DNA from: a virus
Length of the DNA stretch: 64,000 nt
IMG/VR virus record: IMGVR_UViG_3300032307_000370
Coordinates: 1 to 64,000 of that record
Direction: 5' to 3' (one strand)
Of this stretch, positions 1-33,753 are shown piece after piece. Position 1 is the first letter of the stretch. Each line of letters begins with the position of its first letter. The notes below the pieces were generated by a model. The model was not told where the DNA came from. It was given only the letters and a program-made list of their open reading frames with translations, and did no database searches. The position numbers and the translations under genes were made by a program.

Positions 1-663
1 ACTAACGGAACTAATGGTTCAAGTGGGACCAACGGTACAAGCGGTACGAATGGTACTTCAGGTGTTAGTGGGGCTTCGGGTACTAGTGGAACAAATGGTA
101 CTTCGGGAACTGGTTTTAACACCATATCACCAACAACCGCAAATAACATACTTACCGCCAACGGAACACCAAATAGTGCCGATAGCGAACCTAACTTAAC
201 TTTTGATGGTAACGTATTAAACGTTACGGGATCAATAGTTCAAACAGGTGGGGGTTATTCATTAATTAATAATCCAACGACCATTTTAACTGGTAATGGA
301 GGATATGGGGACATTGTGACTTTTGGAACAGGAACATTAAGTGCCGGTCAACTTTATTATTATAATAGTTCAGGAGCTTGGGTTGCTGCAGACGCGGATT
401 CGGTGACAACATCTAGTGGTTTATTAGGTATAGCATTAGGATCGGCACCTTCAAATGGTATTGTTTTAAGGGGGTATGTAAGAAATACTTCATACACATT
501 TGCAACCGCAGATATATTATATGTGTCAACAACCGCAGGATCAATTACTTCAACGCAACCTTCAGGATCGGGAGATATTGTTAGAATAGTTGGGTATATG
601 ATAGATTCCTCAACTGATGTTTTATTCTTTAACCCTGATAATACATTCATTGAATTATCTTAA
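1..663 (+). CDS. Collagen-like (Gly-X-Y) fibre/decoration protein, 5'-truncated by the window edge
   Basis: Frame 1 is open from base 1 (TNGTNGSSGTNGTSGTNGTSGVSGASGTSGTNGTSG...) and in frame with the tracked ORF 316..663. The C-terminal ~110 aa (GQLYYYNSSGAWVAADA...LLGIAL...LYVSTTAGSITSTQP) resembles capsid-decoration/fibre-tip domains. Confidence 0.7.
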   Translation, partial: TNGTNGSSGTNGTSGTNGTSGVSGASGTSGTNGTSGTGFNTISPTTANNILTANGTPNSADSEPNLTFDGNVLNVTGSIVQTGGGYSLINNPTTILTGNGGYGDIVTFGTGTLSAGQLYYYNSSGAWVAADADSVTTSSGLLGIALGSAPSNGIVLRGYVRNTSYTFATADILYVSTTAGSITSTQPSGSGDIVRIVGYMIDSSTDVLFFNPDNTFIELS

Positions 664-716: not shown

Positions 717-2717
717 ATGTCAAATCTTATTAAAATAAATGGTGTTTTATGCGAATCAATTTCAAAAATTGATGGTGTAAACCGTTTAAATATTTTTGAA
801 GTAAATCTTGTTGAATTAATCTGTAACACTCCGACCCCAACACCAACAAATACACCAACGAATACATTAACGCCAACGAACACATTAACGCCAACGAATA
901 CGTTAACTCCGACAAATACTCCAACGAACACATTAACACCAACAAACACATTAACACCAACAAACACATTAACACCAACAAATACTCCAACGAACACATT
1001 AACACCAACAAACACATTAACACCAACAAACACATTAACACCAACAAATACTCCAACGAACACATTAACACCAACAAATACTCAAACTCCGACAAGAACG
1101 GCAACACCAACTTTAACTCCAACAAATACTCAAACTCCAACAAATACTCCAACGAACACATTAACACCAACAAACACATTAACACCAACAAATACGCCAA
1201 CAAACACATTAACACCAACAAATACCCAAACTCCAACCAATACTCCAACGAATACGTTAACTCCGACAAACACATTAACACCAACAAATACCCCAACGAA
1301 TACGTTAACTCCGACAAACACATTAACACCAACAAATACTCAAACACCAACAAATACATTAACTCCAACGGTTACTCCTACGGTTACCCCAACAAATACA
1401 TTAACACCGACTATAACGCCAACGAGAACACCTTCAAATACTCCAACGAATACATTAACACCTACGGTTACACCAACATTTACTCCAACGAATACATTAA
1501 CACCTACGGTTACACCAACATTTACTCCAACAAATACATTAACGCCAACTATAACACCAACGAGAACTCCGTCAAATACACCAACAAACACATTAACACC
1601 TACGGTTACACCAACATTTACACCAACAAATACATTAACTCCAACCATAACACCAACGAGAACTCCATCAAATACGCCAACAAATACATTAACACCAACA
1701 AGAACACCTTCAAATACGCCAACAAACACATTAACTCCAACCATAACACCAACGAGAACACCTTCAAACACACCAACAAATACATTAACACCAACAAGAA
1801 CACCTTCAAACACACCAACAAATACATTAACACCAACCGTAACCGTAACAGAAAGTCCTGGAGCTTGTAAAAATGGTGCTTACGCTAACACTAATGGATT
1901 TGCGGTATTCATTACTTGGTATGACTGTTGTGGTGTTCAACAAAATATGACTGTTCCTGCAAATACAACATTGAATTTAACAACTTGTATTGATGTTACT
2001 CAACCATACACTTCAGGCATAAAAGCAACAGGAGCTTGTAGTCAAGTTTGTCCTTCACCAACACCAACAGTAACAGCAACAAGAACACAAACACCAACAA
2101 GAACACCATCACAAACACCAACAAGAACGCCATCACAAACACCAACAAATACATTAACTCCAACGGTAACTCCAACGAGAACACCATCAAACACACCAAC
2201 AAATACCCCAACAAATAGTTTAACACCAACAAGAACCCAAACACCAACAAATACTCAAACACCAACACCAAGTCCGGGTGGATCAACAACATACAAATAT
2301 AATATTCGTTTGTGTTGCGATGGTGGAGCAACTCCTGGTGTGGTTGAGGTTACATTTACTTTATCCGCAGGAGATGTATTTGTTGATACTAATGGTAATT
2401 GTTGGACGGTCACTACATCATCCACAGGTTCTCCAACCGTAACATTTGACACTTATGTTGGTACAGATTGTAGAGAATGTATGGAGATATACGGTTGTGT
2501 ATGGGAAATTCAATGTTGTCCATCATATTCATTTACAGATTACGTTAGTGATTTAGGATGGGCTGGAATGATATACCCTGGTGCGTTTGTTAAATGTAGT
2601 AACGATTTTTGTTATGAGGTAATACAAGCCGTGATTGCAACACCAACCGAAAGTATCGTTAGTGTATATCGCTCTTGTGACGAATGTTCGGGGGATAGCG
2701 GTAATCCATGTAAATAA
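717..2717 (+). CDS. Mucin-like Thr/Pro-repeat protein with Cys-rich modules (putative virion fibre/appendage)
   Basis: 666 aa; ~350 aa of [12 protein letters not shown] repeats, then three Cys-rich modules; no signal peptide visible; TATTTATA upstream. Confidence 0.75.
828..1850 (+). repeat. Degenerate coding tandem repeat (units such as CCAACAAACACATTAACA, ~18 bp) encoding TPTNTL
   Basis: Visible tandem iteration of 12-18 bp units, with longer recurring blocks ([18 protein letters not shown]) between ~1400 and 1850. Confidence 0.85.
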
Positions 2718-2734
2718 TAGTAATCTATAAAATA

Positions 2735-2770
2735 AAAAACCCCACCTTTTAAAGATGGGGTTTAATTTTT
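2735..2770. terminator. Bidirectional intrinsic terminator between convergent genes
   Basis: AAACCCCA..TGGGGTTT stem flanked by an A-tract and a T-tract, between stops at 2717 (+) and 2769 (-). Confidence 0.7.
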
Positions 2771-5693
2771 ATTTTCTGTTATCCATATAAATTATTATCT
2801 CATTATACCATTCCATAAAATGTTCATTCCATAAATCCCATTTTATATCTACACCGTCCACCGAATATATTTGAAAATTTTCAAATTGAGGTAGAATGTT
2901 ATCTCTAAACCATCGGAATTTACATTTATGAAAATTTTCATCTTCCCTCATATGAAATTCAGTTACAATCTTTGGGATAGTTTTTAAGAATTCAATATTA
3001 CTTTGTTGGAATACGTCGTATTCTCCACCTTCACAATCACACTTTAGGAAATCAATATGGTTGATATTATTTTCTTCCAAAAATTCTTTGAAGGTAAACG
3101 TTGGTACATTTTCTGTAACATTATCCCACGATATGGTAATATGTTTTTTATCTGTTATTGCTCCCTGTATAATTTTAACATTGTCTTGACCAACATTATT
3201 ATGTAAAACTCCAATCTGATATGATAAAGGTTCAACAACGTAACATTGTTTAGGGTTCTTTGGTAAAATCTTATATGTGAATGGACCCAATGATGCCCCT
3301 AAATCCACAACAATATCACCTTCCTCAACCTCAAAAAATCTTTCATAGGTATTATCTTCAAATATTTCTTTGGTTGCCTGATCTTTATACCAATCAGTTT
3401 TACCACCCCAATCAAATGGTTTGTCATCTATCATTTCTTCCATTACTTCATTATTTATTATTTTATTTATTTCTTTTATAACCATATCGGTACTAATACG
3501 TTTCGTACATTCAAACATCCGATCGGTATTTTTATGTAATGGACACCAATTCCAATCACCGGCATCTAATCTTTCCGAATTAAAACATCCGTGACAAACA
3601 TTTTCATTAATGACCCTATAAGTATCCAAAGTTGTTTCCGCCCATTTTTCACTAAACCCTGAGATTAAAACAACGGGTAATTTACAAGCCCAAGCCAACC
3701 AAGATAAACCTGAACCTAAACCAACGAAGAATTCACATTCGGATAAGTCGTTAATGACTTCTTGTAAGTTTCCTCCTTTAAAAATGGTTACCCCTTTTGG
3801 GTAATGGTTATTCATATAACCATTTCCTTCTTTAGAGTATATCATACATTCATACCCTAATGAGTTTAGGTAGTCAACCACTTTTTGCCAACCATCAGAG
3901 TTATTCCAATACTTTGCCTGTGCGGTTGAATGGAACCCAATCCCAACCTTTTTTTTCTTTGTGGTCTTAGGTAGATTTAATTTTGGTCTTATTTCTTTAT
4001 ACTCTAAACCTAAAATATCGGTTGCAGTTTTTTGTAGTGGTATTTTCTTAAAGTCAATTGGGTTTCTATTTTTATCAAACTTTCCGTCTTTATCGTAAAA
4101 CCAACCCAATCTATATTGAGCGTGTATATTTGGGACAACATCTCCCGGATCAACAAACTCTATATTCGGATATTGATCTCTAAATAAATCATTCATAAAA
4201 GTTGATACAATCAATTTACAATCATGTTTTTGTCTAAACACTTCCATATATGGTATCCATGCCAATGTATCTCCCAATGATTTAGACCCAAACGATATGT
4301 AAACCCTATTATCCTTTAAATTCAAAGTTTGATCATATATGGTCTTACCTTCTTCTTCAACGGTTGTTCTCCACTTAACAAAATATTCGGTATTCAATTT
4401 AACCCAACTATTAATTGATAATTGGTTTTGATAAACAACATTATTGTTGTTATCATAAAATTTTATCGTGAATAAGTTTTTACTTTCTCCTTGTACCTCA
4501 AAGTAAGGTTGGGTTACATAATGTCTTATAAATGTATAATTATTTGTGATCGGTTTGTTTTCGGTAATTTCTAAATCCATTACCATTTTATACATAGTTA
4601 ATAACTCTTCACCAAAGTTTTCATCATTAGGAACTTTATATGTTTTATCGTCATTAATTAAATTAACTAATTGTTTGGAGATATTATCAATACCTTCTTC
4701 AATTGGGGTTATATAGTTTTCAAACATACCAACATATTGTGGTAAATTTCTTGTTAGGATTTTTAACCCATAGTTAATAGATTCTCTTAAAACTAAAGGG
4801 TTACACTCCCAAGTTGAATTAAACATTAACACGTCACAAGCTTGCATGAATTTATCAACATCATCTCTTTCTCCCCAAACTTTTACATTTGATGGTAGGT
4901 TCTTCATAATTGGACCCCAATACTCTTCAAAGTTAGGTGCTTGATTACCAATAAAGTGAAATTGTATTTCGGGATTAGATTCAACCAAAGTTCTTGCAAC
5001 CTCAACTCCCTCACCTTGATTTTTTCCACTTGTCCATAATCCAACATTTAATACATGAGTTTTAAACATATCCATTCCAAGTTCATCCCTAACTTTAATT
5101 TTTTGAATTAATGGAATTTGGTTAATATTTAAATCTACACCATTTTCTTTTGATATCTCCCTAACTTTATTTTCATAAGGATACAAATTTAAAAATTTCA
5201 TGGGTGTTGTATTCTTAAATGTATTTTCCATATGATATGGTGTAACTAAAGAATATGCGTCAGGTTGTAATTTTTTATTTGTTTTTGGGTCATACCATAT
5301 GTTATGACACGTCTCAATAATTCTCCAAGTCCTATTATTAGAATATAATTGATTTAATAAATCTAATGGTATTTTATTAAAAGATTCAAACCCATCTAAC
5401 ATTTCTTCTGAGTGAATAACATCAATATTATTATTTTTAATAATATCAATTAACATATATTTTTTATCAACCTCATCAGTTCCACCTAATGTAAAGAAAT
5501 GATCGTTACCCAATAATTCAATAATTTTATTTCTTTGAACCACATATGTAGAACTGAATTGAGAATACTCAACCAAAAATAATTCAATCCGATCTTTATA
5601 ATCTTGTAATGACTCAATTCTTTTTAATACGAACTGAGGCATACCACCTGTTGATAAGTGGGGCGTTATATATAATAATTTAATCTTTTTCAT
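2769..5693 (-). CDS. Tri-domain enzyme: GT4 glycosyltransferase + TibC/Aah-family (BAHT) protein O-heptosyltransferase + FkbM-type methyltransferase
   Basis: N-term GT-B (HLSTGGMP...GERDDVDKFMQACDVLMFNSTWECNPLVLRES). Middle matches TibC motifs (EYFVKWR..DQTLNLKDNRVYISF..SLGDTLAWIPY; STAQAKYWNN; GSGLSWLAWA..PVVLISGFS; CHGC..WCPLHKNTDRMFEC). C-term VVDLGASLG...FLKCDCEGGE. Confidence 0.85.
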   Translation of the reverse strand: MKKIKLLYITPHLSTGGMPQFVLKRIESLQDYKDRIELFLVEYSQFSSTYVVQRNKIIELLGNDHFFTLGGTDEVDKKYMLIDIIKNNNIDVIHSEEMLDGFESFNKIPLDLLNQLYSNNRTWRIIETCHNIWYDPKTNKKLQPDAYSLVTPYHMENTFKNTTPMKFLNLYPYENKVREISKENGVDLNINQIPLIQKIKVRDELGMDMFKTHVLNVGLWTSGKNQGEGVEVARTLVESNPEIQFHFIGNQAPNFEEYWGPIMKNLPSNVKVWGERDDVDKFMQACDVLMFNSTWECNPLVLRESINYGLKILTRNLPQYVGMFENYITPIEEGIDNISKQLVNLINDDKTYKVPNDENFGEELLTMYKMVMDLEITENKPITNNYTFIRHYVTQPYFEVQGESKNLFTIKFYDNNNNVVYQNQLSINSWVKLNTEYFVKWRTTVEEEGKTIYDQTLNLKDNRVYISFGSKSLGDTLAWIPYMEVFRQKHDCKLIVSTFMNDLFRDQYPNIEFVDPGDVVPNIHAQYRLGWFYDKDGKFDKNRNPIDFKKIPLQKTATDILGLEYKEIRPKLNLPKTTKKKKVGIGFHSTAQAKYWNNSDGWQKVVDYLNSLGYECMIYSKEGNGYMNNHYPKGVTIFKGGNLQEVINDLSECEFFVGLGSGLSWLAWACKLPVVLISGFSEKWAETTLDTYRVINENVCHGCFNSERLDAGDWNWCPLHKNTDRMFECTKRISTDMVIKEINKIINNEVMEEMIDDKPFDWGGKTDWYKDQATKEIFEDNTYERFFEVEEGDIVVDLGASLGPFTYKILPKNPKQCYVVEPLSYQIGVLHNNVGQDNVKIIQGAITDKKHITISWDNVTENVPTFTFKEFLEENNINHIDFLKCDCEGGEYDVFQQSNIEFLKTIPKIVTEFHMREDENFHKCKFRWFRDNILPQFENFQIYSVDGVDIKWDLWNEHFMEWYNEIIIYMDNRK

Positions 5694-5730
5694 AATAATA
5701 AAAATAGGTTATTGAGAATTAAAATTAAAG

Positions 5731-5738
5731 TATTTATA
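5731..5738 (+). promoter_or_regulatory. Putative late-promoter motif TATTTATA
   Basis: 13 nt before ATG 5752. Confidence 0.6.
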
Positions 5739-5751
5739 AAATAAAGATTAA

Positions 5752-7341
5752 ATGCCAAATTCAATAAAATATAATGCAAGTGCGGAAACTTTATCACTTA
5801 AAAAAGGTAACTTTTGGATTGGTACTGGTGATGTTGGGAAAGGTCCGACAAGTACCTCAGGATTTTACAATGGGATCACACCCCCATCCGGTGGGTATAC
5901 AATATATTTAAACAAAGCATCAGGTGGACCATCAATATATGTTGCTTATGATGATACTGAATTAATAAGTATGACTAATAAAATTGCAGGAACAAGTTAT
6001 AGTACGGCAAATGAATGTTTAAATTATTATACATCCCAAACAGATAAAGTTATCTCCAATAAAGAATGTCCAGCAATTATTACAAATGGATTAGTTTTAA
6101 ATATTGATGCAAGTTTTACGCCTTCATACCCAAAAAACGGCACCACATGGTACGATATAAGTGGTGGTGGTAATAATGGGACTTTAATTAATGGGACAAC
6201 CTTTAGTACGGATAATGGTGGTACTATTTTGTTTGACGGTGTGGACGATTATGTTGATATAAATAATAATTCGTCTTTACAGATTGTAGATAATATTACT
6301 ATTGAGATTATAGTTAAAATTAATTCCACAAATATAGGTGATATAAAAGTTATTGCAAATAAATATTCTGGTACGGGTTGGGAATTTCTTTTAGATTCGT
6401 CAGGGAAATTTGTATTAGCAGGAAGAAATGGAGATGGAACCTATTATACTAGTAATAGTCAAACAGTGGTTGCCAACAATAATTACTCTCATTTGGTTGG
6501 TATAAAATCAGGTTTATTATGGCAAACATATGTTAATGGAACTTTAACCTCCACAACAAATGCCAATTCAACAGGTACGTTATCTAACAATACGAATATG
6601 CAGATTGGTAGGGAGGGTCCGAATTACTACACATCCATGTATTTACCATCATTTAAAATATACAACCGAGCTTTATCATCCTCAGAAGTTCTACAAAATT
6701 ATAATGCAACCACATTTTTAGGGTCACAATATAATCCCGCAAATTCAGCTGCGTCAATTTTATCTGTAAACCCATCCGCAACGGATGGATATTATTGGAT
6801 TAATACCAGTTTAGGTCCGAGACAATTATATTGCATCATGTCTCAAGGAGGATGGATGGGAGTTACAAGTGAACTTAGCCCTCAGATTGCAAATTTAGGG
6901 TCATCAGCATCTTGGGAAACTAACACAAATAGAAGATTACAAAGTGCCAACTCTCAAGTATTAAATGTTACGGTTCAAGAAGGTGACTGTGGTTCTCCAA
7001 AATACTATCAATTACGTAGCCCAAGTGTAAACGGATTAAACCATAGTCAAACTATGTTGTTAATACAAAGAGTTACAACCATAGGTCAATGTTCATATAT
7101 AACAGATACGGTTAGTAATGGATATTATACCGGACCAGAATATACCGGAACTTACACTTCTTCCGCAATGTGTACATGGGGTGATGGTAATTTTGCTAAT
7201 ACTTGTTGTGGAGCCCAAAACATGACAGGATTAAAAACTTATTGGGTATTAATAGGTAGTGGTACTAACTCAAGTTTAACTTACCAAGTACAATGTGCCG
7301 GTGGTAGTGGTCAACATTACCATATGTGGTTTGTAAAATAA
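5752..7341 (+). CDS. LamG/concanavalin-A-like domain protein with Cys-rich C-terminal domain (putative fibre/adhesin)
   Basis: GLVLNIDAS..SYPKNGTTWYDISG..NNGTL..FDGVDDYV..KIYNRALSSSEVLQNY is a typical phage LamG signature. It is followed by SAASIL..ATDGYYWIN..QLYC.M..GGW, resembling a fibrinogen-C-like entry motif. Confidence 0.75.
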   Translation: MPNSIKYNASAETLSLKKGNFWIGTGDVGKGPTSTSGFYNGITPPSGGYTIYLNKASGGPSIYVAYDDTELISMTNKIAGTSYSTANECLNYYTSQTDKVISNKECPAIITNGLVLNIDASFTPSYPKNGTTWYDISGGGNNGTLINGTTFSTDNGGTILFDGVDDYVDINNNSSLQIVDNITIEIIVKINSTNIGDIKVIANKYSGTGWEFLLDSSGKFVLAGRNGDGTYYTSNSQTVVANNNYSHLVGIKSGLLWQTYVNGTLTSTTNANSTGTLSNNTNMQIGREGPNYYTSMYLPSFKIYNRALSSSEVLQNYNATTFLGSQYNPANSAASILSVNPSATDGYYWINTSLGPRQLYCIMSQGGWMGVTSELSPQIANLGSSASWETNTNRRLQSANSQVLNVTVQEGDCGSPKYYQLRSPSVNGLNHSQTMLLIQRVTTIGQCSYITDTVSNGYYTGPEYTGTYTSSAMCTWGDGNFANTCCGAQNMTGLKTYWVLIGSGTNSSLTYQVQCAGGSGQHYHMWFVK

Positions 7342-7348
7342 TATAATT

Positions 7349-7546
7349 ATGGCGTATATAATAGTTAAAAATGTTATGGGAATTATTGGAGAACAAATCT
7401 TAATATACCCATTTAGAGAAGGGGATCAAATATATAGTTATGTTACTATGGAAGAAGCCCAACAAAAACTTAATGAGATTCAAAATGAAATCATTTACAG
7501 TGATTGTACCCTTCAAATTATTGAGGATAATGATTGGTATTTATAG
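7349..7546 (+). CDS. Hypothetical protein (65 aa)
   Basis: Tightly packed after the LamG gene, same strand. Confidence 0.5.
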   Translation: MAYIIVKNVMGIIGEQILIYPFREGDQIYSYVTMEEAQQKLNEIQNEIIYSDCTLQIIEDNDWYL

Positions 7547-7548
7547 TT

Positions 7549-7821
7549 ATGGAAACTCAAGAATATGATAATAGAAGATTTATGATATTTTCAGTAACTG
7601 AATTAAATCAAATTGATTTTAATGAAGTTTTAGAAACATCAATAGACACCGTAAGAAAATCGGTGGACCAATTAAAAACATTTGTAAAGTGGGAGAATGT
7701 AATACCCGAATGCGTAACTAATCTAACAACAAAGGAGGGTCCTTATACTTATGAAGAGATATTAGTAATTTTGGCAACACCAGAATGGACAGATCCGAAC
7801 CCTCCAATGATAATACCATAA
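7549..7821 (+). CDS. Conserved-looking phage hypothetical protein
   Basis: IDFNEVLETS..TVRKS.D..KTFVKW..PYTYEEIL.IL.TPEW motif; the ATG at 7549 follows the previous stop (track start 7534 overlaps the previous gene). Confidence 0.6.
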   Translation: METQEYDNRRFMIFSVTELNQIDFNEVLETSIDTVRKSVDQLKTFVKWENVIPECVTNLTTKEGPYTYEEILVILATPEWTDPNPPMIIP

Positions 7822-7859
7822 CTTATTTATTTTTATCTCATAGCCTTTATAATTAAGAT

Positions 7860-8798
7860 ATGAAAAAAGTTTGTTTGGATGTTTCGGGCGCAAGAGCGTT
7901 AGGTGATACCTTGGCTTCAACTCCCACTTTAAGAAAACTCTATCATTCATATAATCAAAAAATTTCCATCATAACTCACCACCCATATTTATTTCATAAT
8001 AACCCATACGTTGATGTGGTATACAACGAACTAACTATTCCGATAACCGATGAACAAAAACAAGAATATGAAATTTTTAATTCGTTCAACATTGGGTATC
8101 ACCCAAATGGTGTTTGTTATAAACATAATACGATGGATATAAGACAGTTCCACGCAATTAATCTTGGGTTTATGTTAACCAAAGATGAGATGGTGTTGGA
8201 TTACATTTCAGATCCGTACGAACCTATTGAAGGTCTACCTGAAAAATACGTTTTAATACACCCCGTTCAGAATTGGAACTCAAGAACGTGGGATGCAAAA
8301 AAATGGCAACTACTCACAAAACTTTTAAACGAAAGGGGTATTGCCGTTGTGTCGGTCGGTAAAGATTCTTCCGAACTCGGAGGATCTAATGTTGATAAAC
8401 CGGTATTCAATTTCCCAATAGAATTAGGTATGAACCTAATGAACCAAACTACATTATCTCAAACGTGGCATTTAATTAATAATAGTATGTGTTTTATCAC
8501 TATGGATTCAGGTTTATTACATTTGGCGGGAACGACAGATGTACATATTATTCAATTGGGTAGTTCAATAAATCCTGAGTTCAGATCACCATTTAGAAAA
8601 GGATCACAAGAATATAAATACCATTATGTTAGAGGTGGTTGCGGATTAAATTGTGCTTCAGATATGAAATATGGGGTTAGAGAATGGCAATCAATACAAG
8701 GAATACCATCTTTAGTTAATTGTTTGGAAAGAAAAGAAACTTTTGAGTGTCACCCAAACCCATTGATGGTATATAATAAAGTTATGGAAATAATATAA
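7860..8798 (+). CDS. GT9-like (heptosyltransferase-fold) glycosyltransferase with Cys-rich C-terminus
   Basis: ALGDTLASTP; YVLIHP..WNSRTW..KKW; FITMDSGLLHLAG; C-terminal CGLNC..C..FEC. Confidence 0.75.
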   Translation: MKKVCLDVSGARALGDTLASTPTLRKLYHSYNQKISIITHHPYLFHNNPYVDVVYNELTIPITDEQKQEYEIFNSFNIGYHPNGVCYKHNTMDIRQFHAINLGFMLTKDEMVLDYISDPYEPIEGLPEKYVLIHPVQNWNSRTWDAKKWQLLTKLLNERGIAVVSVGKDSSELGGSNVDKPVFNFPIELGMNLMNQTTLSQTWHLINNSMCFITMDSGLLHLAGTTDVHIIQLGSSINPEFRSPFRKGSQEYKYHYVRGGCGLNCASDMKYGVREWQSIQGIPSLVNCLERKETFECHPNPLMVYNKVMEII

Positions 8799-8805
8799 AA
8801 AGTAG

Positions 8806-8813
8806 TATTTATA
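8806..8813 (+). promoter_or_regulatory. Putative late-promoter motif TATTTATA
   Basis: 13 nt before ATG 8827. Confidence 0.6.
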
Positions 8814-8826
8814 ATAAAATAATTTA

Positions 8827-10596
8827 ATGTCTCAAGTAGTTGATATACTTACCTCAACAGGTGTTGCCCCATATAATGTTTTTGTTTGTGATATAACAAA
8901 TACTTTTTGTTATCCGGTTGCCAATGGTATAACATTACCTTATCAATTTACCGTACCACCACCATTAGACACATCAACATCAGTTATAATCAAACTTATT
9001 GATTCTGATGGATGTGAAACCTTTGAATTGTACCAATGTCCGGTAACACCAACTGTAACTCCAACCGCAACTGTAACCCCAACTCCAACACAAATTATCC
9101 CTTGTAATTGTTTAATATTAACAAACCCAACAACAACCATAATCGGTTATTTTGATTATGTTGATTGTAATGGTAATCAACAGACGAGTGTGCCTGTTAG
9201 CCCAGGATTAACATATTATGTGTGTGGTGGAAATATTACAAATGTTATTGGGTTAATACAATCAATGGGTAACCCTTGTGTTAACGGTGATTGTATTCCC
9301 GTACCTTCATCAACACCAACTTTAACTCCAACCCCAACTATTACCCCAACAATAAGTTTGGGACCAACGAATACCCCCACAAATACTCAAACACCAACCG
9401 TAACACCTACAAATACGTTAACACCAACTGTAACCCCTACAAATACTCAAACTCCAACTAACACACCTACCATAACGGAAACTTTAACAAATACCCCAAC
9501 ACCAACTGAAACCCCAACAAATACCCCAACAAATACATTAACACCCACAAACACAAATACGCCAACCAACACAAATACGCCAACCAACACAAACACACCA
9601 ACAATAACTCCAACCATAACGCCAACACCAAGTATTACACCCACTATTACACCAACACCAACTTTATCATCAACATATCCACCATTACCACCATCACAAA
9701 CTCCAACGAATACCCAAACGAATACCCAAACACCAACTAACACATTAACCCCTACAAATACCCAAACCCCAACTGTAACAACCACAAATACATTAACCCC
9801 AACAAATACACCAACCCCGACCAACACGTTAACACCGACTATTACACAAACACCAACTAACACATCAACAAATACAGTAACACCCACAAATACTCCTACA
9901 AATACCCTAACGCCAACCAACACCCAAACGCCAACCATAACCCCAACTAATACACCAACGAACACATTAACTCCAACAAATACTTTAACACCAACAAACA
10001 CATTAACCTCAACGATAACACCATCTATAACCCCAACAATAAACTATTCGGTATTTTATGTTGTATCTTGTGGAACTTGCGGTGGATCATACCCAATTGA
10101 TGGGTTTATGTTGTTACCATCATCATTCAGTATAGGTACGGTTGTTTTGGCAACAAATGGAGGATGTTATCAAATTAATTCAACTTTAAGTGGTACAATA
10201 ACATTATATTGGAGCTCAACATCATATACCGAATGTGCAAAATGTGAGTTAGATAACCCATGTCCTACCCCAACCCCAACTCCAACCAGAACAATAACAC
10301 CAACACCAACAATAACACCTACCAAAACTAAGACACCAACACCTACCAAAACTAAGACACCAACTCCAACTCCGACACCGGGTACGGTTTATTTAGCAAA
10401 TTCTTGTTGTATTCCGGGGTTACAAAAATACGTTATATTACCATCAGCAGGATTAGGTCCGAGATTAGTTTTAATTGGTGGTCAGTGTTATCAAACAATT
10501 GCTCAAACTAGTGGAACACCATTAAACGTTGGTACATTATTACCGATTGGTACTACTTGTAGTAGTTGTATATCAACTTATGGTTGTGACGGATAA
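8827..10596 (+). CDS. Mucin-like Thr/Pro-repeat protein with Cys-rich modules
   Basis: 589 aa; ~250 aa TPTNT tract, Cys modules shared with ORFs 717, 19792 and 23637. Confidence 0.75.
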   Translation: MSQVVDILTSTGVAPYNVFVCDITNTFCYPVANGITLPYQFTVPPPLDTSTSVIIKLIDSDGCETFELYQCPVTPTVTPTATVTPTPTQIIPCNCLILTNPTTTIIGYFDYVDCNGNQQTSVPVSPGLTYYVCGGNITNVIGLIQSMGNPCVNGDCIPVPSSTPTLTPTPTITPTISLGPTNTPTNTQTPTVTPTNTLTPTVTPTNTQTPTNTPTITETLTNTPTPTETPTNTPTNTLTPTNTNTPTNTNTPTNTNTPTITPTITPTPSITPTITPTPTLSSTYPPLPPSQTPTNTQTNTQTPTNTLTPTNTQTPTVTTTNTLTPTNTPTPTNTLTPTITQTPTNTSTNTVTPTNTPTNTLTPTNTQTPTITPTNTPTNTLTPTNTLTPTNTLTSTITPSITPTINYSVFYVVSCGTCGGSYPIDGFMLLPSSFSIGTVVLATNGGCYQINSTLSGTITLYWSSTSYTECAKCELDNPCPTPTPTPTRTITPTPTITPTKTKTPTPTKTKTPTPTPTPGTVYLANSCCIPGLQKYVILPSAGLGPRLVLIGGQCYQTIAQTSGTPLNVGTLLPIGTTCSSCISTYGCDG

Positions 10597-10656: not shown

Positions 10657-11904
10657 ATGAAAATATTTGTTCAAATCGCAGCGTATAGAGATCCTCAATT
10701 GGAGCCAACAATAAAAAATATGTTGGAAAACGCTAAAAGACCCAAAAATTTAAGAATTGGTATTTGTAGACAATACAATCCTGATGATCAATTTGATTTG
10801 TTAGAGGAATATCGTAAAGACAATAGATTCAGAATATTGGATGTTTTATATTCAGATTCAAGAGGAGTTTGTTGGGCAAGAAATCAGGTCCAACAATTAT
10901 ATGAAGGTGAAGAATATACCCTACAAATTGATTCACATATGAGATTTGAGAAGGATTGGGATGATACATTAATTAAAATGATTAAACAACTTCAGAAAAA
11001 AGGTTTTGAGAAACCTTTATTAACGGGTTATGTTTCATCATTTGATCCTGATAATGACCCAGCAGGAAGAGTTCAAGAACCATGGAGAATGGCGTTTGAT
11101 AGATTTATTCCTGAAGGTGCTGTATTCTTCTTACCTGAAACAATTCCGGGTTGGCAAAAAATGAAAGAACCTGTTCCTGCAAGATTTTACTCGGCACACT
11201 TCGCATTTACTTTAGGTCAATTTAGCGAAGAGGTACAACATGATCCTGAATTTTATTTTCACGGGGAAGAAATATCAATTGCGGTAAGAGCATATACTCA
11301 TGGTTATGATTTGTTCCACCCACATAAAGTAGTTATTTGGCACGAATACACTCGTAAGGGTAGAACTAAACAATGGGATGATGATAAAGATTGGGTTAAT
11401 AAAAATAATTTATCTCACCAAAAAAATCGTCAGCTTTTTGGTATGGACGGTGAAGAAGTTACAATGGAATTTGGTAAATATGGTTTTGGTACCGAAAGAA
11501 CATTAAGAGATTATGAAATTTATTCGGGTCTTTTATTTTCAAAGAGAGCAGTTCAACAATATACATTAGATAAAAACTACCCACCTAACCCCCATATTTT
11601 TGAAACCGAAGAAGAATTAATGGCGAGTTATGCATCCATATTCAAACATTGTATTGATATTGGGTTTACCCAAGTTCCTGAAAAAGATTATGAGTTTTGG
11701 GTTGTTGCATTTCATGATGAAAATGATGAAACCATTCATAGACAAGATGCCGATATTAACGAAATTAATATGATGATGAATGATCCTGATGGGTATTGTA
11801 AAGTGTGGAGAGAATTCCAAACCGCACATAAACCAAAATATTGGGTTGTATGGCCTTATAGTACATCAAAAGGTTGGTGTGAAAGAATCTCAGGAAATTT
11901 ATGA
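10657..11904 (+). CDS. GT60-like polypeptide N-acetylglucosaminyltransferase (Skp1 Gnt1 / GlcNAc family)
   Basis: KIFVQIAAYRD..LRIGICRQ..SRGVCWARNQVQQLY.GEEYTLQIDSHMRF..WD..FYSAHFAFT..FHGEEISIAVRAYTHGYDLFHP..IWHEY matches GT60 family motifs, including DSH. Confidence 0.8.
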   Translation: MKIFVQIAAYRDPQLEPTIKNMLENAKRPKNLRIGICRQYNPDDQFDLLEEYRKDNRFRILDVLYSDSRGVCWARNQVQQLYEGEEYTLQIDSHMRFEKDWDDTLIKMIKQLQKKGFEKPLLTGYVSSFDPDNDPAGRVQEPWRMAFDRFIPEGAVFFLPETIPGWQKMKEPVPARFYSAHFAFTLGQFSEEVQHDPEFYFHGEEISIAVRAYTHGYDLFHPHKVVIWHEYTRKGRTKQWDDDKDWVNKNNLSHQKNRQLFGMDGEEVTMEFGKYGFGTERTLRDYEIYSGLLFSKRAVQQYTLDKNYPPNPHIFETEEELMASYASIFKHCIDIGFTQVPEKDYEFWVVAFHDENDETIHRQDADINEINMMMNDPDGYCKVWREFQTAHKPKYWVVWPYSTSKGWCERISGNL

Positions 11905-12338
11905 TTTTAATATCTCATAGAGGTAACATTAATGGTAAAAAAGAAGATCTTGAAAATAAACCTCAATATATTGATGAAGCATTAAGTTTAGGTTATAATG
12001 TTGAGGTTGATGTTTGGATGATTGATGGCGTTTTATTTTTAGGTCATGATGATCCACAGTATGGTATAACTCAAGAATGGTTAAATACCCGATACGAACA
12101 TTTATGGATACATTGTAAAAATATAGGAGCAATAGAATGGTTTAATATTATTGGTGGGTTTAATTATTTTTGGCATCAAGAAGATACTTTAACCATAACA
12201 TCAAATGGGTATCTTTGGGTATATCCGGGTAAACAACCCATTAAAAATAGTATTTCAGTATTACCCGAAATGTTTAATGATGATGTTTCGGAATGTATTG
12301 GGATATGTTCTGATTATATAAAAAATTATAATGATTGA
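11901..12338 (+). CDS. PLC-like/GDPD-like phosphodiesterase-fold protein
   Basis: ISHRGN..EN..YI.EAL..GY.VEVDVW..LFLGHD..LWIHCKN; ATGA-type overlap with the upstream gene. Confidence 0.65.
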   Translation: MILISHRGNINGKKEDLENKPQYIDEALSLGYNVEVDVWMIDGVLFLGHDDPQYGITQEWLNTRYEHLWIHCKNIGAIEWFNIIGGFNYFWHQEDTLTITSNGYLWVYPGKQPIKNSISVLPEMFNDDVSECIGICSDYIKNYND

Positions 12339-13686
12339 GTTAATTATATTTGATTTAGACGGAGTATTATTTGATGCAAAAGAAATACATTATGAATCCC
12401 TAAATAAAGCTCTTGGTAATTATTCCATATCTTGGGATGAACATTTATCAATATATGATGGGCTTAAAACAAATCAAAAATTAGAAATACTTCACGACAG
12501 AAAAGATTTACCTAAAGAGTTATTTAAAGACGTGTGGGATAAAAAACAACAATACACACTAGAGTCATTAAAAAACTTAAAACCAAATAACGATATTATC
12601 TTAACGGTATCTAAACTCTCTAAAGATGGGTATAAATTGGCCGTGTGTTCTAATAGTATTAGAAAAACAGTTCTAACTGTTTTATCAAAATTAGGTATCA
12701 TTGAATATTTTGACTTAATACTTTCAAATGAAGATGTAAAAAATTCAAAACCTCATCCTGAAATTTATTGGAAAGCAATATCAATAATCCAATGTTTACC
12801 TGAAGAAACTTTAATCGTTGAAGATTCCCCATATGGTCTTTTATCCGCATCCAGAAGTAAATCCCATGTATTAAGAGTTAAATCAACCTCTGAGGTTAAT
12901 TATGATAACATAACAAATAAAATAAAAGAAATAGAAATGGGTAATGATATTGGTATACCAAAATGGGAAGATAAAAATTTAAATATTTTGATCCCAATGG
13001 CAGGTGCCGGATCAAGATTTCAACAAGCGGGATATACATTTCCTAAACCGTTGATAGATATTAATAATAAACCTATGATACAAGTTGTTGTTGATAATTT
13101 AAATATTGATGCTAATTACATTTATGTTGTGCAAAAAGAACATCGTGAAAAATATAACTTAGATACGATGTTAAATTTAATAACACCTAATTGTAAGATT
13201 GTTGAGGTGGATGGTATAACTGAAGGAGCCGCTTGTACCGCCTTATTGGCAAAAGAATACATTAATAATAACAAACCATTATTCTTTGCAAATTCAGACC
13301 AATATGCGGAGTGGGATTCAAATGAATTTATGTATAAAATGAATGAGACGGATTCTGATGGTGGTATCGTTACGTTTAAATCTTCCCACCCAAAATGGTC
13401 CTTTGCCAAAGTTGACGAAAATAATATGGTAACGGAAGTTGCTGAAAAAAATCCCATATCGGATAATGCAACCGTTGGATTTTACTATTGGAAAAAAGGT
13501 TCCGACTTTGTCAAATACGCGGAAAAAATGGTAGAGAAAAACATAAGGGTTAATAATGAATTTTATGTGTGTCCCGTTTTTAATCAGGCAATAGAAGATA
13601 ATAAAAAAATAAGAATATACGAAATAAAAAATATGTGGGGTCTTGGTACCCCCGAAGATTTAAAAACTTTTCTAAATAAAAAATAA
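12331..13686 (+). CDS. HAD phosphatase fused to sugar-phosphate nucleotidyltransferase-like domain
   Basis: N-term FDLDGVL..CSNS..KPHPEIY..IVEDS; C-term IPMAGAGSRF..PKPLI..NSDQY..VAEK.PIS..GLGTPEDL. Confidence 0.8.
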   Translation: MIELIIFDLDGVLFDAKEIHYESLNKALGNYSISWDEHLSIYDGLKTNQKLEILHDRKDLPKELFKDVWDKKQQYTLESLKNLKPNNDIILTVSKLSKDGYKLAVCSNSIRKTVLTVLSKLGIIEYFDLILSNEDVKNSKPHPEIYWKAISIIQCLPEETLIVEDSPYGLLSASRSKSHVLRVKSTSEVNYDNITNKIKEIEMGNDIGIPKWEDKNLNILIPMAGAGSRFQQAGYTFPKPLIDINNKPMIQVVVDNLNIDANYIYVVQKEHREKYNLDTMLNLITPNCKIVEVDGITEGAACTALLAKEYINNNKPLFFANSDQYAEWDSNEFMYKMNETDSDGGIVTFKSSHPKWSFAKVDENNMVTEVAEKNPISDNATVGFYYWKKGSDFVKYAEKMVEKNIRVNNEFYVCPVFNQAIEDNKKIRIYEIKNMWGLGTPEDLKTFLNKK

Positions 13687-31512: not shown

Positions 31513-32637
31513 TTAGATTACATATATTTGTCTTGGCATTGCTCTAAACTTAAGAGATTTATTTAAGTTTTCAGCAATTAACGCTTCTCGTTCCATTACT
31601 TTCTCAGGTTTTAATCTTGTCAATCTACCTTCAGGTCCGATAAGTTCATCTATAAGTTTTGTTTTTTCATCTTTCGCTTCAGTAGCTAATGATGTGTAAT
31701 CCATAGTTAATTCAGAATCAGGGGTTTTGATGTTACCACTAAACTTACCTCTAACTCTTGCTAACGTTTCTTTACAATAAGCGGTAAACCATCTACGAAC
31801 CCAAACTTGTGCCGGATTATTTAGATCTGACCAAGACATTTGTTGGAATGGTACATCCGATGGCATTTGAATTATATCAGGGTTATTTTTTAAACAATCG
31901 TCCTTATCTTCTTCACAAGCATCATAATACCAATACCATACTCTACCTTTATTTAATGAACCATTACCAAAATCAAATTTTCCACCAGGAACATTCATTA
32001 AGTGAATGGCCTTTTTACCATCAGGTAATGCGGTAATTCTATATGTTAAATCACCTTGTATAATTCTTCTTTGGATATTAATTTCTTGCATTCTTAACAA
32101 CATATCAAATGCTGGCATCATAAAGTAACTACCTGCCAAGTTTCCCATTTGGGCAAACCCCGCAGGTCCTGCTAAACCACCACCAGCAATACCACCAAAA
32201 GTCCACGGATCAATTAATGTATTGTTTAACTCTGCCGGTGAAAACCATAATAATTCATTTATTTCTCTACACGCAGGGATTTCATAAATTTGTTGGTTCT
32301 CAACTAATTGTATATAATCTTTTTTCAGAACATAATCACCACCGGCTTGTAACCCAACAATCTTGGAATAAGCGTAAGTGTATCTTGTTTCGTAATCCAA
32401 ACTTTTCGTGATGAATGCTTTTGCAACTGATTGAGTTTCTATATTCAAACCCCAAAGATTAGACCACTGAGATTCAATCAACCAATCTTGTATGTATTGT
32501 GAGTAATCATCAATAGAGAATTCCAATAGAGTATCCATTTGTTCATCCTCTAATTCAACACTACGAAGTGGTGCACCTAATAGGTGACGAATTCTCGTGT
32601 ATAATTTACTTCTTTCTGGTTCTGAAATTATTGACAT
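31513..32637 (-). CDS. gp13: Neck/head-completion protein (T4 gp13-like)
   Basis: RIRHLLGAPLRSVELEDEQM N-terminus; WVRRWFTAYCKETLARVRGKFSG..G..L C-terminus. Confidence 0.75.
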   Translation of the reverse strand: MSIISEPERSKLYTRIRHLLGAPLRSVELEDEQMDTLLEFSIDDYSQYIQDWLIESQWSNLWGLNIETQSVAKAFITKSLDYETRYTYAYSKIVGLQAGGDYVLKKDYIQLVENQQIYEIPACREINELLWFSPAELNNTLIDPWTFGGIAGGGLAGPAGFAQMGNLAGSYFMMPAFDMLLRMQEINIQRRIIQGDLTYRITALPDGKKAIHLMNVPGGKFDFGNGSLNKGRVWYWYYDACEEDKDDCLKNNPDIIQMPSDVPFQQMSWSDLNNPAQVWVRRWFTAYCKETLARVRGKFSGNIKTPDSELTMDYTSLATEAKDEKTKLIDELIGPEGRLTRLKPEKVMEREALIAENLNKSLKFRAMPRQIYVI

Positions 32638-32658
32638 AGTTTTTATTTTATAAATATC

Positions 32659-33753
32659 TTACTTTTTAGTTCTCAACAGATACAACTCATTAACAAACTC
32701 CCAATTTACGTGATCCCAAAACTTTTTAATATACTCGTCTCGTTTATTTCTATAACGTAAATAATATGCGTGTTCCCAAACATCAAGACCTAATAAAGGG
32801 TAACCCCCATCTTTAACAACACTCATCATAGGGTTATCTTGGTTTGGTGTTGATACGACTTTTAATCTTCCTGTCTTAGTAAGAACCAACCATACCCATC
32901 CTGAACCAAATCTATCCATGGCAGATTGATTAAATTCATCCTTCATTTTTTTTATGTTACCATATTGTTTGGTAATTTTTTCGTATACCTCACCACTTGG
33001 TTTTTGTCTTTTAGGTGATAACATTTTCCAAAACAATGCGTGATTAAAAGCACCACCAGCATTATTTCTAATTGTTGTATTGTATTTACCGATTGTTTTT
33101 ACAATATCTTCTAACTCAACATCACCATAATCTTTTTTGGATAACGCATCGTTTAATTTTTTAACATAACCTTTATAATGTTTGTTATAATGAACATCCA
33201 TAGTTTCAGGATCAACAAACTTATTTAATGCCGAATATGAATATGGTAATTTCTCAATACCAATTTTTTTCATTTCCATTATAAAGTTTTCACGGATATT
33301 TTGTTTTTCAACTAATATAAGTTGTTCATTGATTAAATTGATTTTTTTACCAATACCAACTAACCCTTCATACATTAACTTTTCATATTGGGGGAAATCA
33401 CGTTCAAATTTTTTAATAACTGAACCAGCTTCTGAGTTTGCTTCATCTTCATTTGGACCTCCAATATCAGGACCCCTCTCAACACCTTTAGTTGATCGTT
33501 GCCATTCGTGTACCCATTCGTGAGCCAATGTTCTACAAACATCACGATTTATTCGTCCTCTAGTTAACACTTTAAGTTCAGAATTATCGTTTCTACTTCC
33601 AGTTGACATACCTTCAGTTTTTTCACCCAAAAATAAAACAGTAACATCATTATTAACAGGATATTTTTTTTGTAAGTATTTTAGGAAATCTCCGACTAAT
33701 TCTTTGTCCTCTTTGGACATATCGCATTTTATATGTTTAATAGTTACTTTCAT
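32659..33753 (-). CDS. sod: HExxH metallopeptidase-like domain fused to Fe/Mn superoxide dismutase
   Basis: LPYSYSAL..MDVHYNKHYKGY..NNAGGAFNHALFW..FGSGWVWL..NQDNP..DVWEHAYY; N-term RTLAHEWVHEWQ..EDEANSEAG. Confidence 0.9.
   Translation of the reverse strand: MKVTIKHIKCDMSKEDKELVGDFLKYLQKKYPVNNDVTVLFLGEKTEGMSTGSRNDNSELKVLTRGRINRDVCRTLAHEWVHEWQRSTKGVERGPDIGGPNEDEANSEAGSVIKKFERDFPQYEKLMYEGLVGIGKKINLINEQLILVEKQNIRENFIMEMKKIGIEKLPYSYSALNKFVDPETMDVHYNKHYKGYVKKLNDALSKKDYGDVELEDIVKTIGKYNTTIRNNAGGAFNHALFWKMLSPKRQKPSGEVYEKITKQYGNIKKMKDEFNQSAMDRFGSGWVWLVLTKTGRLKVVSTPNQDNPMMSVVKDGGYPLLGLDVWEHAYYLRYRNKRDEYIKKFWDHVNWEFVNELYLLRTKK

Follow-up and report, generated by a model that had tools for sequence, protein, structure and literature searches.

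A TibC/Aah-type module within a three-domain enzyme of an uncultured freshwater myovirus and its genomic pairing with a proline-free collagen-like fibre

The IMG/VR virus contig IMGVR_UViG_3300032307_000370 is 127,725 bp long (CheckV completeness 44%), and its first 64 kb are the window analysed here. Near the start of this window lies a minus-strand gene for a 974-aa protein in which a module of the BAHT family, the family of the bacterial protein heptosyltransferases TibC and Aah, stands between a glycosyltransferase (GT) domain of family GT4 and an FkbM-type methyltransferase domain (Table 1). The reading that we favour, with modest confidence, is that this single chain starts an O-glycan on the giant collagen-like fibre of the same phage, lengthens it and adds a methyl group to it. 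The identities of the domains, the fold, the conservation of the catalytic and metal residues, the conservation of the fusion and the pairing of the gene with genes for Gly-Thr-Ser/Asn proteins are directly established.

The central domain is a real and complete member of the BAHT family by profile hidden Markov model (HMM), by fold and by catalytic residues. Residues 408-745 match the NCBIfam equivalog model TIGR04414 (hepto_Aah_TibC, titled 'autotransporter strand-loop-strand O-heptosyltransferase') with 296.9 bits (cut-off 200), the match spanning positions 29-374 of the 374 in the profile, and a six-frame search of the genome with the same model gave 299.9 bits, whereas the model for lipopolysaccharide (LPS) heptosyltransferase I (WaaC) reached just 20 bits on this module against a cut-off of 185. 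Pfam places Glycos_transf_1/GT4 at residues 203-353, Glyco_transf_9 at 576-677 and FkbM at 855-921. Among the PDB sequences, TibC (4RAP) was matched by phmmer over its residues 61-387 with an E-value of 5.6e-73. Similarity at this level far exceeds what chance would produce. A full-length AlphaFold2 model, built from an alignment of 31 homologues, has a mean predicted local distance difference test score (pLDDT) of 76, with values of 80-95 across most of the central module. When it was compared with the PDB by Foldseek, the TibC chains ranked at the top (E ~1e-31, target-normalised template modelling (TM) score 0.80-0.82, root-mean-square deviation 3.3-3.9 A), and the overlay covered 381-388 columns of chains of 380-390 residues, which is nearly the whole chain including the N-terminal beta-barrel. 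Indeed, the model has eight strands at residues 385-468, followed by the GT-B core. Pfam PF21129 (TibC_1st) found no match in the 974-aa enzyme at an E-value of 0.1, and the barrel is therefore divergent in sequence. The first-pass annotation had proposed a complete TibC/Aah-type domain between GT4 and FkbM, to be checked by an HMM search for the autotransporter O-heptosyltransferase family and by a structure overlay with TibC; the profile, phmmer, fold and residue results all bear it out, and the overlay proved close rather than poor. The motifs that it quoted are all present in the open reading frame (ORF), namely WVKLNTEYFVKWR from residue 430, LGD with D475, AKYWNN at 592-597, SGLSWLAW at 661-668, and CHGC, WCP and FEC.

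The two flanking domains are intact as well, as judged by their motifs. The GT4 domain scores 39.9 bits on PF00534 (cut-off 26.4) and 33 bits on PF13692 (cut-off 27); an EX7E motif, E296...E304, can be read from the sequence at nt 4782-4808, and the fold matches BshA, WaaG and MshA in Foldseek with E-values of 1e-10 to 1e-11, pLDDT being low in the N-lobe at residues 98-165. The FkbM domain scores 49.9 bits on PF05050 (cut-off 22.7) and 53.9 bits on TIGR01444 (cut-off 37.7), and its putative glycine-rich motif for binding of S-adenosylmethionine (SAM), VVDLGASLG, is found at residue 795. Judged by eye, the chain begins with the first strand and glycine-rich loop usual for GT4, and an export signal is not obvious; nor was a membrane anchor noticed, and the enzyme is probably cytoplasmic.

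Residue roles were taken from the description of TibC (PMC4358343) and transferred through a HMMER alignment, with positions checked in a MAFFT alignment of 158 domains. The TibC residues Asp110, Thr226, Lys230, Trp305 and Phe368 and the four cysteines of the iron finger are all kept in the phage enzyme and are near-invariant across the 158 aligned domains. In TibC the beta-barrel and the Cys finger serve the binding of protein substrates and oligomerisation; the enzyme is a dodecameric ring of six back-to-back dimers, and the thumb-tip residues Phe265 and Val266 together with Phe368 are used in its assembly (PMC4358343). Two residues related to the donor are not kept. Arg286, whose contact with adenine is the authors' stated basis of the ADP specificity of TibC, and whose replacement in R286A abolished or largely diminished activity (PMC4358343), is Val646 here, and Pro300, related to stereoselectivity at C6, is Gly660.

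The difference at Arg286 divides the family. Bacterial homologues were collected as 80 loci from species-representative genomes, 59 of them Arg-type and 21 non-Arg. Arg is kept at this position in the Aah-like enzyme of a Salmonella plasmid, in the Gluconobacter enzymes and in the 59 classical homologues, which come from Lentisphaeria, Negativicutes, Enterobacteria and Oxalobacter and are the more distant ones (37-42% identity); the branch of the phage enzyme has Val, Ile, Leu, Thr or Met instead. The 21 non-Arg homologues are closer (42-55% identity), belong to Methylococcales, Burkholderiales and some small contigs of metagenome-assembled genomes, and usually carry Gly at the Pro300 position. 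On a maximum-likelihood tree of 131 rows, the distribution of Arg and non-Arg needs two changes, as compared with a shuffled mean of 43.7, and the phage enzyme is placed in well-supported groups that are entirely non-Arg. Because it has neither Arg286 nor an autotransporter partner, we assign the enzyme not to the typical BAHTs but to a distinct branch of the family which, according to the alignment and the tree, is shared with genomes of Methylococcales and Burkholderiales.

The order GT4-BAHT-FkbM is a conserved architecture. A word-indexed search of metagenome proteins gave 4,205 hits with lengths of 535-1,705 aa. The 120 top-ranking ones are 78-98% identical to the phage enzyme, most of them are about 975 aa long with the same three families, and the names given to them by the Joint Genome Institute are the TIGRFAM name. 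An exhaustive search of representatives at 50% identity gave 1,484 clusters, 770 of them at E <= 1e-30, and among the best 150 representatives 139 exceed 500 aa. In IMG/VR, relatives were found on 286 contigs, some of which are complete or near-complete genomes with lengths of 274-373 kb. Across the architectures sampled, the BAHT module is combined with GT4, GT2, a PLOD-type collagen GT, DUF6625, FkbM, TylF or MT24, and such recombination with varied glycosyltransferase and methyltransferase domains fits a modular role in glycan building. In one chain of 1,827 aa (P0196) the module is fused with DUF6625 and a PLOD-type collagen glycosyltransferase domain, and representatives P0125, P0131, P0134, P0139 and P0269 have two full BAHT modules per chain. 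The only deposited phage records with the module are those of Microcystis phage Mel-JY01 and three huge phages. In Mel-JY01 (L088, PP395634.1) positions 4750-8430 encode a 1,226-aa GT4...BAHT protein whose module is 50% identical to ours and has Ile at the Arg286 position; it is annotated merely as 'methyltransferase FkbM' and adjoins a gene for a 'structural protein'. As a cultured cyanophage, Mel-JY01 would offer a culturable system for this question. In BFVD, UniProt entries from Virus NIOZ-UU157 and 'uncultured Caudovirales phage' are already called 'Glycosyltransferase Aah/TibC'.

The neighbour that recurs beside the enzyme gene is a collagen-like gene. At the very start of the window, ORF 1-663 contains a Gly-X-Y run with a weak match to PF01391, and its product aligns at 53% identity (E 4e-62) with the last 220 residues of a 2,923-aa fibre encoded by the closest near-complete relative, G001 (291,867 bp, 99% complete). 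That fibre, with 357 GTN and 267 GTS triplets, is the product of the one and only Gly-X-Y ORF in the whole G001 genome, and its gene ends 1.9 kb from the enzyme gene. We scanned the fetched flanks of 80 viral and 80 bacterial loci for runs of at least eight Gly-X-Y triplets. A proline-free ORF of this kind, rich in Ser, Thr and Asn, was present at 51 of 80 viral loci, at 11 of the 21 non-Arg bacterial loci and at one of the 59 Arg-type loci (Fisher p 3.5e-7 for the two bacterial sets, whose related rows are not independent). Nearly all of the listed viral runs are proline-free and consist of Ser, Thr or Asn to 52-67%. Where at least 5 kb of downstream sequence was available, the Gly-X-Y gene lay within 5 kb at 28 of 54 viral loci, and within 500 bp at 10; of the 29 downstream Gly-X-Y genes, 27 converge on the enzyme gene. 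Stand-alone non-Arg enzymes of Methylococcales adjoin (GTS)n or (GTT)n proteins of 230-330 aa with N-termini resembling signal peptides. The stand-alone homologue of Methylomicrobium lacus has neighbours with no informative Pfam match; the adjacent protein of 241 aa is Ser-rich, has a signal-peptide-like N-terminus and contains no long Gly-X-Y run.

The classical partner of the BAHT family is absent from these phages, since a search of the contig and of four relatives with a completeness of 93% or more found no autotransporter beta-domain (PF03797); on the Salmonella plasmid, the Aah-like gene directly precedes AIDA-I. No beta-helix or adhesin family was detected by Pfam in the large structural proteins encoded downstream. 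The first-pass annotation had linked the enzyme with glycosylation of virion proteins and had pointed to the Thr/Pro (TP)-repeat gene at 717-2717, with which the enzyme gene is indeed convergent across a 12-pair hairpin. Modification of a structural protein of the phage is the best-supported reading; the TP-repeat gene is not the conserved partner, as a strongly TP-rich ORF lies within 6 kb at 8 of 79 loci and a TP tract of any kind occurs at 32 of 80. Its product is a possible second acceptor. We name the fibre as the most likely acceptor mainly because its pairing with the enzyme recurs across phages and bacteria, evidence of the type that also connects TibC to TibA.

What we infer from these data is which acceptor and which sugar are used, in what order the steps follow, and that the fibre belongs to the virion. 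According to the reading that we favour, the BAHT module would start the glycan by attaching a sugar to hydroxyls of Thr and Ser in the (Gly-Thr-Asn/Ser)n fibre, this sugar most likely being heptose with a nucleotide-heptose as donor; the GT4 domain, and probably also the product of the neighbouring GT9 gene at 7860-8798, would extend the glycan; and the FkbM domain would cap it by O-methylation. All of these steps would precede virion assembly and occur in the host cytoplasm during infection. We propose more tentatively, and with doubt prevailing, a wider view: that there is a second, larger and hitherto undescribed BAHT branch without the adenine-reading Arg that is dedicated to proline-free (Gly-Thr-Ser/Asn)n proteins, and that in freshwater jumbo phages its members are single-chain, possibly ring-forming multi-enzymes which coat a virion fibre of 2,000-3,000 residues with a methyl-capped, heptose-based O-glycan.

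Several points must be taken into account against fibre glycosylation by this enzyme. Our contig breaks off within the fibre gene, and the TP-repeat gene is inserted between the fibre and enzyme genes. About one third of the related viral loci have no Gly-X-Y gene in the fetched flanks, some of these loci being truncated. It is the type of fibre that suggests a component of the virion, and genomic association that suggests a glycan on the fibre in this phage group. Enzymes of the GT4, GT9 and HtrL types are also typical of LPS-core synthesis. Finally, with Val646 for Arg286 and Gly for Pro300, the donor may not be ADP-heptose, and neither gmhA nor hldE was found in the 127,725-bp contig, which is 44% complete, or in relatives G001, G002, G003 and G005.

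ADP-heptose, named as the donor by the first-pass annotation, is thus not secured, and a serious although less probable alternative is that an enzyme of the same class acts on a protein acceptor with GDP- or CDP-activated heptose or with another sugar, in which case 'heptosyltransferase' would be a misnomer for the branch. Arg286 is the sole base-specific contact of TibC, and its replacement throughout the branch is coherent on the tree; Pro300 is Gly. No phage-encoded ADP-heptose pathway was found in this fragment or in four of the five near-complete relatives, among them the closest ones; moreover, the gene island has its own fusion of a HAD-type domain and a sugar-1-phosphate nucleotidyltransferase (12331-13686), which could make the island's nucleotide sugar, so that the BAHT donor might come from there. 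The exception is the 373-kb relative G004, with terminal repeats, in which a sedoheptulose-7-phosphate isomerase resembling GmhA scores 238.7 bits on NF001628 (cut-off 265) and a nucleotidyltransferase resembling HldE domain II (107.5 bits) is encoded about 200 kb from it; the host could also supply ADP-heptose. Further evidence on the side of ADP-heptose is that the beta-phosphate contacts Thr226 and Lys230 are kept and that the authors of the TibC study describe the Arg286 hydrogen bond as weak (PMC4358343). The invariant heptose-O4 contact Trp305 (Trp665 here) favours heptose, and the conserved second GT9 gene near the enzyme was counted on the same side. Heptose from a nucleotide-heptose is therefore retained as the most likely donor.

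The remaining explanations, in which the acceptor is not a phage protein, are less likely because of the protein-binding modules of the BAHT domain, its repeat-protein partner and the absence of supporting genes. It is improbable that the enzyme, together with the GT9, GT4 and HtrL genes of the island, alters the LPS core or a polysaccharide of the host on a lipid-linked or free glycan, for instance to block superinfection. GT9, GT4 (with its WaaG-like fold matches), HtrL/YibB and FkbM genes are common in LPS and polysaccharide clusters, and the companion gene product of 7860-8798 weakly matches the WaaF, WaaQ and WaaC models; however, the three-domain enzyme exceeds the BAHT-specific cut-off and falls far short of that for LPS heptosyltransferase I, keeps the beta-barrel and the Cys finger, shows no membrane anchor, and has a repeat protein as its conserved partner. 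Modification of host adhesins or other surface proteins, or a role as a sink for host ADP-heptose, as the first-pass annotation had also suggested, is very improbable and nothing was found in its support: classical BAHTs do target bacterial surface adhesins, and the bacterial non-Arg enzymes adjoin apparently secreted repeat proteins, but the contig and the four relatives encode no autotransporter beta-domain, the phages carry their own matching repeat protein beside the enzyme gene, and for a mere sink the GT4, FkbM and conserved acceptor-binding modules would be needless. Least probable of all is sugar hypermodification of hydroxymethylated pyrimidines in phage DNA, for which phage GT-B enzymes with HAD/kinase and cytidylyltransferase partners that put mono- or di-heptose on 5-hydroxymethylcytosine (bioRxiv 10.1101/2023.12.21.572611) and the HAD-nucleotidyltransferase gene of the island can be cited, since the known DNA enzymes are T4 beta-GT-like and not BAHT (same source), the protein-binding barrel and finger are kept, and no base-hydroxymethylation family was found among the scanned ORFs of the window, no genome search having been aimed at one.

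The closest known enzymes are TibC of enterotoxigenic Escherichia coli and Aah of diffusely adhering E. coli (PDB 4RAP and 4RB4), which belong to the same HMM family and share with the phage module the whole-chain fold, the barrel, the GT-B core, the catalytic Asp, the Thr/Lys pair, the Trp, the finger and a hydrophobic thumb tip. Like them, the phage enzyme lacks any obvious export signal, so that its repeat-rich surface target would be modified prior to export or assembly. TibC and Aah differ in being stand-alone proteins of about 400 aa, whereas the phage enzyme is a module within a 974-aa chain of three enzymes; their partner is an autotransporter or beta-helix adhesin and not a proline-free Gly-Thr-Ser/Asn collagen-like protein; and the substitution of Val and Gly for Arg286 and Pro300 sets the phage enzyme in a separate branch. 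The LPS heptosyltransferases WaaC, WaaF and WaaQ (GT9) have the same CAZy-level fold and catalytic Asp loop, and the companion protein of 7860-8798 is about equally similar to them and to TibC; they lack, however, the beta-barrel and the Cys finger and act on lipid A-Kdo acceptors, and the three-domain enzyme scores 20 bits with the WaaC model as opposed to 297 with the BAHT model.

The closest functional analogue of extension and methylation on one chain is A064R of chlorovirus PBCV-1, in which two GT domains and a methyltransferase domain build capsid glycans and methylate the terminal sugar (PMC9614988). It too is one viral chain that is predicted to be soluble and cytoplasmic, but its rhamnosyltransferases are of GT-A type and unrelated to GT4 and BAHT, and it serves the N-linked glycans of the capsid protein of a eukaryotic virus, with no priming of protein. 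As for the acceptor, the collagen-like regions of BclA from the exosporium of Bacillus anthracis are densely glycosylated (PMC10050317), and collagen-like Thr repeats are thus workable carriers of glycans. BclA is a trimeric collagen-like fibre whose Gly-X-Thr-type repeats are O-glycosylated with a glycan that ends in a methylated sugar; in contrast to the phage fibre, its repeats contain proline, the glycan is N-acetylgalactosamine-rhamnose-rhamnose-rhamnose-anthrose, and it is a protein of the bacterial spore surface and not of a virion. We know of no involvement of a BAHT in its glycosylation. Among phages, GTs encoded by mycobacteriophages have been reported to decorate proteins of the capsid and of the tail tube of the same phage (Freeman et al. 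2023, cited in PMC12619734). These enzymes belong to other GT families and those phages are small actinophages, in which the major capsid subunit and the tail-tube subunit carry the glycans on their C-terminal tails; neither a heptosyltransferase-type enzyme nor a repeat fibre is known to take part.

The carrier of the gene is an uncultured freshwater myovirus whose near-complete relatives have genomes of 274-373 kb. The window also codes for a tail sheath protein and a family-B DNA polymerase (PolB), and near-identical DNA is present in freshwater and lake metagenomes from two further studies, runs with small word shares having been left out of the habitat inference. No tRNA gene was found within the 64-kb window. 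An identity as a cyanophage was considered: psbA was not found, and the nearest cultured phage with the module, Mel-JY01, is 50% identical. The moraphage lineage was rejected, because heat-shock genes have been reported in all moraphages (PMC12619734), whereas no HSP70 gene is present in the contig or in four near-complete relatives. Three short contigs of related sequence from metatranscriptome run X20 map onto the enzyme gene; as they may represent DNA carry-over, we do not take them as evidence of transcription.

Table 1. Features of the three-domain enzyme, of its gene neighbourhood and of loci in one relative. Positions are those of the window unless a contig is named; residues of TibC are given with their counterparts in the phage enzyme.
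Feature	Position	Strand	Remarks
Three-domain enzyme gene	2769..5693	-	974 aa, open for 974 codons; GT4 + BAHT (TibC/Aah-type) + FkbM
GT4 domain (GT-B, retaining-type)	4569..5693	-	aa 1-375; PF00534, PF13692
BAHT N-terminal beta-barrel	4290..4541	-	aa 385-468; eight predicted strands, corresponding to residues 1-97 of TibC
BAHT catalytic domain (GT9-like GT-B) with beta-hairpin thumb and iron finger	3456..4289	-	aa 469-746; TIGR04414, TibC match
FkbM-type SAM-dependent methyltransferase domain	2772..3416	-	aa 760-974; PF05050, TIGR01444, phrog_8156
Catalytic base, Asp110 to D475 (LGD loop)	4269..4271	-	codon; invariant in 157/158 aligned domains
Beta-phosphate contacts, Thr226 and Lys230 to T590 and K594			by alignment
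Thumb tip, Phe265-Val266 to Y626-M627			by alignment; pLDDT <50 at 625-627
Adenine N1 contact, Arg286 to Val646, not kept	3756..3758	-	codon; branch-defining difference
C6-stereoselectivity residue, Pro300 to Gly660, not kept			by alignment
Heptose O4 contact, Trp305 to W665			by alignment; invariant in 158 domains
Ring contact, Phe368 to F727			by alignment
Iron finger, C339, C342, C358, C370 to C700, C703, C717, C729	3507..3596	-	predicted metal site, by alignment
C-terminal 220 aa of proline-free collagen-like fibre	1..663	+	GTN/GTS/GSS triplets, then globular end; gene cut by contig start
Thr/Pro-repeat protein gene	717..2717	+	666 aa, Cys-rich modules, phrog_15511; between fibre end and enzyme gene
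Terminator-like hairpin	2737..2763		12 pairs, T-runs on both strands; between convergent enzyme and Thr/Pro-repeat genes
LamG / concanavalin-like protein gene	5752..7341	+	divergent from enzyme gene; phrog_8510 'virion structural protein'
Barrel-less GT9 heptosyltransferase-like gene	7860..8798	+	312 aa, own LGDTLA loop; PF01075 52 bits
PF11397 'GlcNAc' (GT60-like) glycosyltransferase gene	10657..11904	+	247.7 bits; phrog_24687 574 bits
HAD + nucleotidyltransferase fusion	12331..13686	+	beta-phosphoglucomutase-like HAD (TIGR02009, 97 bits) + RmlA-like sugar-1-phosphate nucleotidyltransferase (55 bits)
FkbM-HtrL/YibB fusion	17372..19753	+	793 aa; counterpart at 19/80 related loci
Locus L083 of relative G004	C1:117294-120764
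Locus L084 of relative G004	C1:315753-319145

The enzyme gene lies within an island of genes for fibrous or surface-type proteins and at least six other transferases (Table 1). The GT9 companion at 7860-8798, whose product has weak matches to WaaF, WaaQ, WaaC and TibC, has a counterpart at 47 of 80 related viral loci. The PF11397 gene is situated directly 3' of a second Thr/Pro-repeat gene (8827-10596) and has a counterpart at 26 of 80 related loci; its product may decorate the TP tracts with mucin-type glycans. A GT2-like gene is also present. The HtrL/YibB family occurs in the LPS-core cluster of E. coli. It is probable that these remaining genes of the island (PF11397, HAD-nucleotidyltransferase, GT2-like and FkbM-HtrL) serve the Thr/Pro-repeat proteins and the supply of sugar.

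Other genes of the window have unusual features. The tail sheath protein (38357-41674, plus strand) is unusually long, with 1,105 aa, its sheath domains being confined to residues 813-1102, and it contains a Thr/Pro tract of 43 aa. A minus-strand gene at 32659-33753, adjoining a head-tail adaptor-like gene, encodes a Fe/Mn superoxide dismutase with both Pfam domains at residues 166-356 and an N-terminal extension of about 160 aa that has no family match. Between two TP-repeat genes, a plus-strand gene at 21697-23610 combines a protease-like N-terminal region (phrog_20754) with a PEBP domain (PF01161). The motif TATTTATA is found at 697-704, 5731-5738, 8806-8813, 19771-19778, 46131-46138, 38316-38323 and 42676-42683, and on the minus strand at 32649-32656. 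It precedes the ATG by 12-14 nt at the TP-repeat genes, the LamG gene, the large gene at 46153 and the minus-strand gene 31513-32637, lies at a somewhat greater distance 5' of the sheath gene, and is absent at the 12-14 nt spacing from the three-domain enzyme gene. Its count in the whole window is not above chance (21 against 16.5 expected); the fixed spacing to the start codon suggests an element of a late promoter or of the initiation region.

To our knowledge, all BAHTs described so far are stand-alone enzymes of Proteobacteria that are associated with virulence and hyper-heptosylate autotransporter adhesins. The family itself is known, and its names are attached automatically by annotation pipelines; searches of the open-access literature brought up no study of BAHT enzymes in phages or of Mel-JY01, and none describing the fusion, the viral setting or the collagen-like partner. 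The name 'autotransporter strand-loop-strand O-heptosyltransferase', which pipelines have given to thousands of metagenome proteins, is for the non-Arg branch certainly wrong as regards the substrate, and unproven as regards the donor.

The data presented here show that the catalytic machine of the BAHTs, with its metal finger, is a module of a conserved phage multi-enzyme. If the pairing with the collagen-like fibre is real, the substrate range of the family widens to Gly-Thr-Ser/Asn triplet repeats, in phages as well as in free-living bacteria. Published examples of virion glycosylation are few, namely the capsid and tail proteins of mycobacteriophages and the capsids of chloroviruses, and the pairing would provide a defined, abundant and easily expressed system for glycosylation of virion fibres in environmental phages, as well as a natural one-chain enzyme that primes, extends and methylates for the glyco-engineering of repeat proteins. 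Should the wider view of the branch prove true, neither an O-heptosylated viral protein nor a glycosylated collagen-like fibre of a phage would have a precedent.

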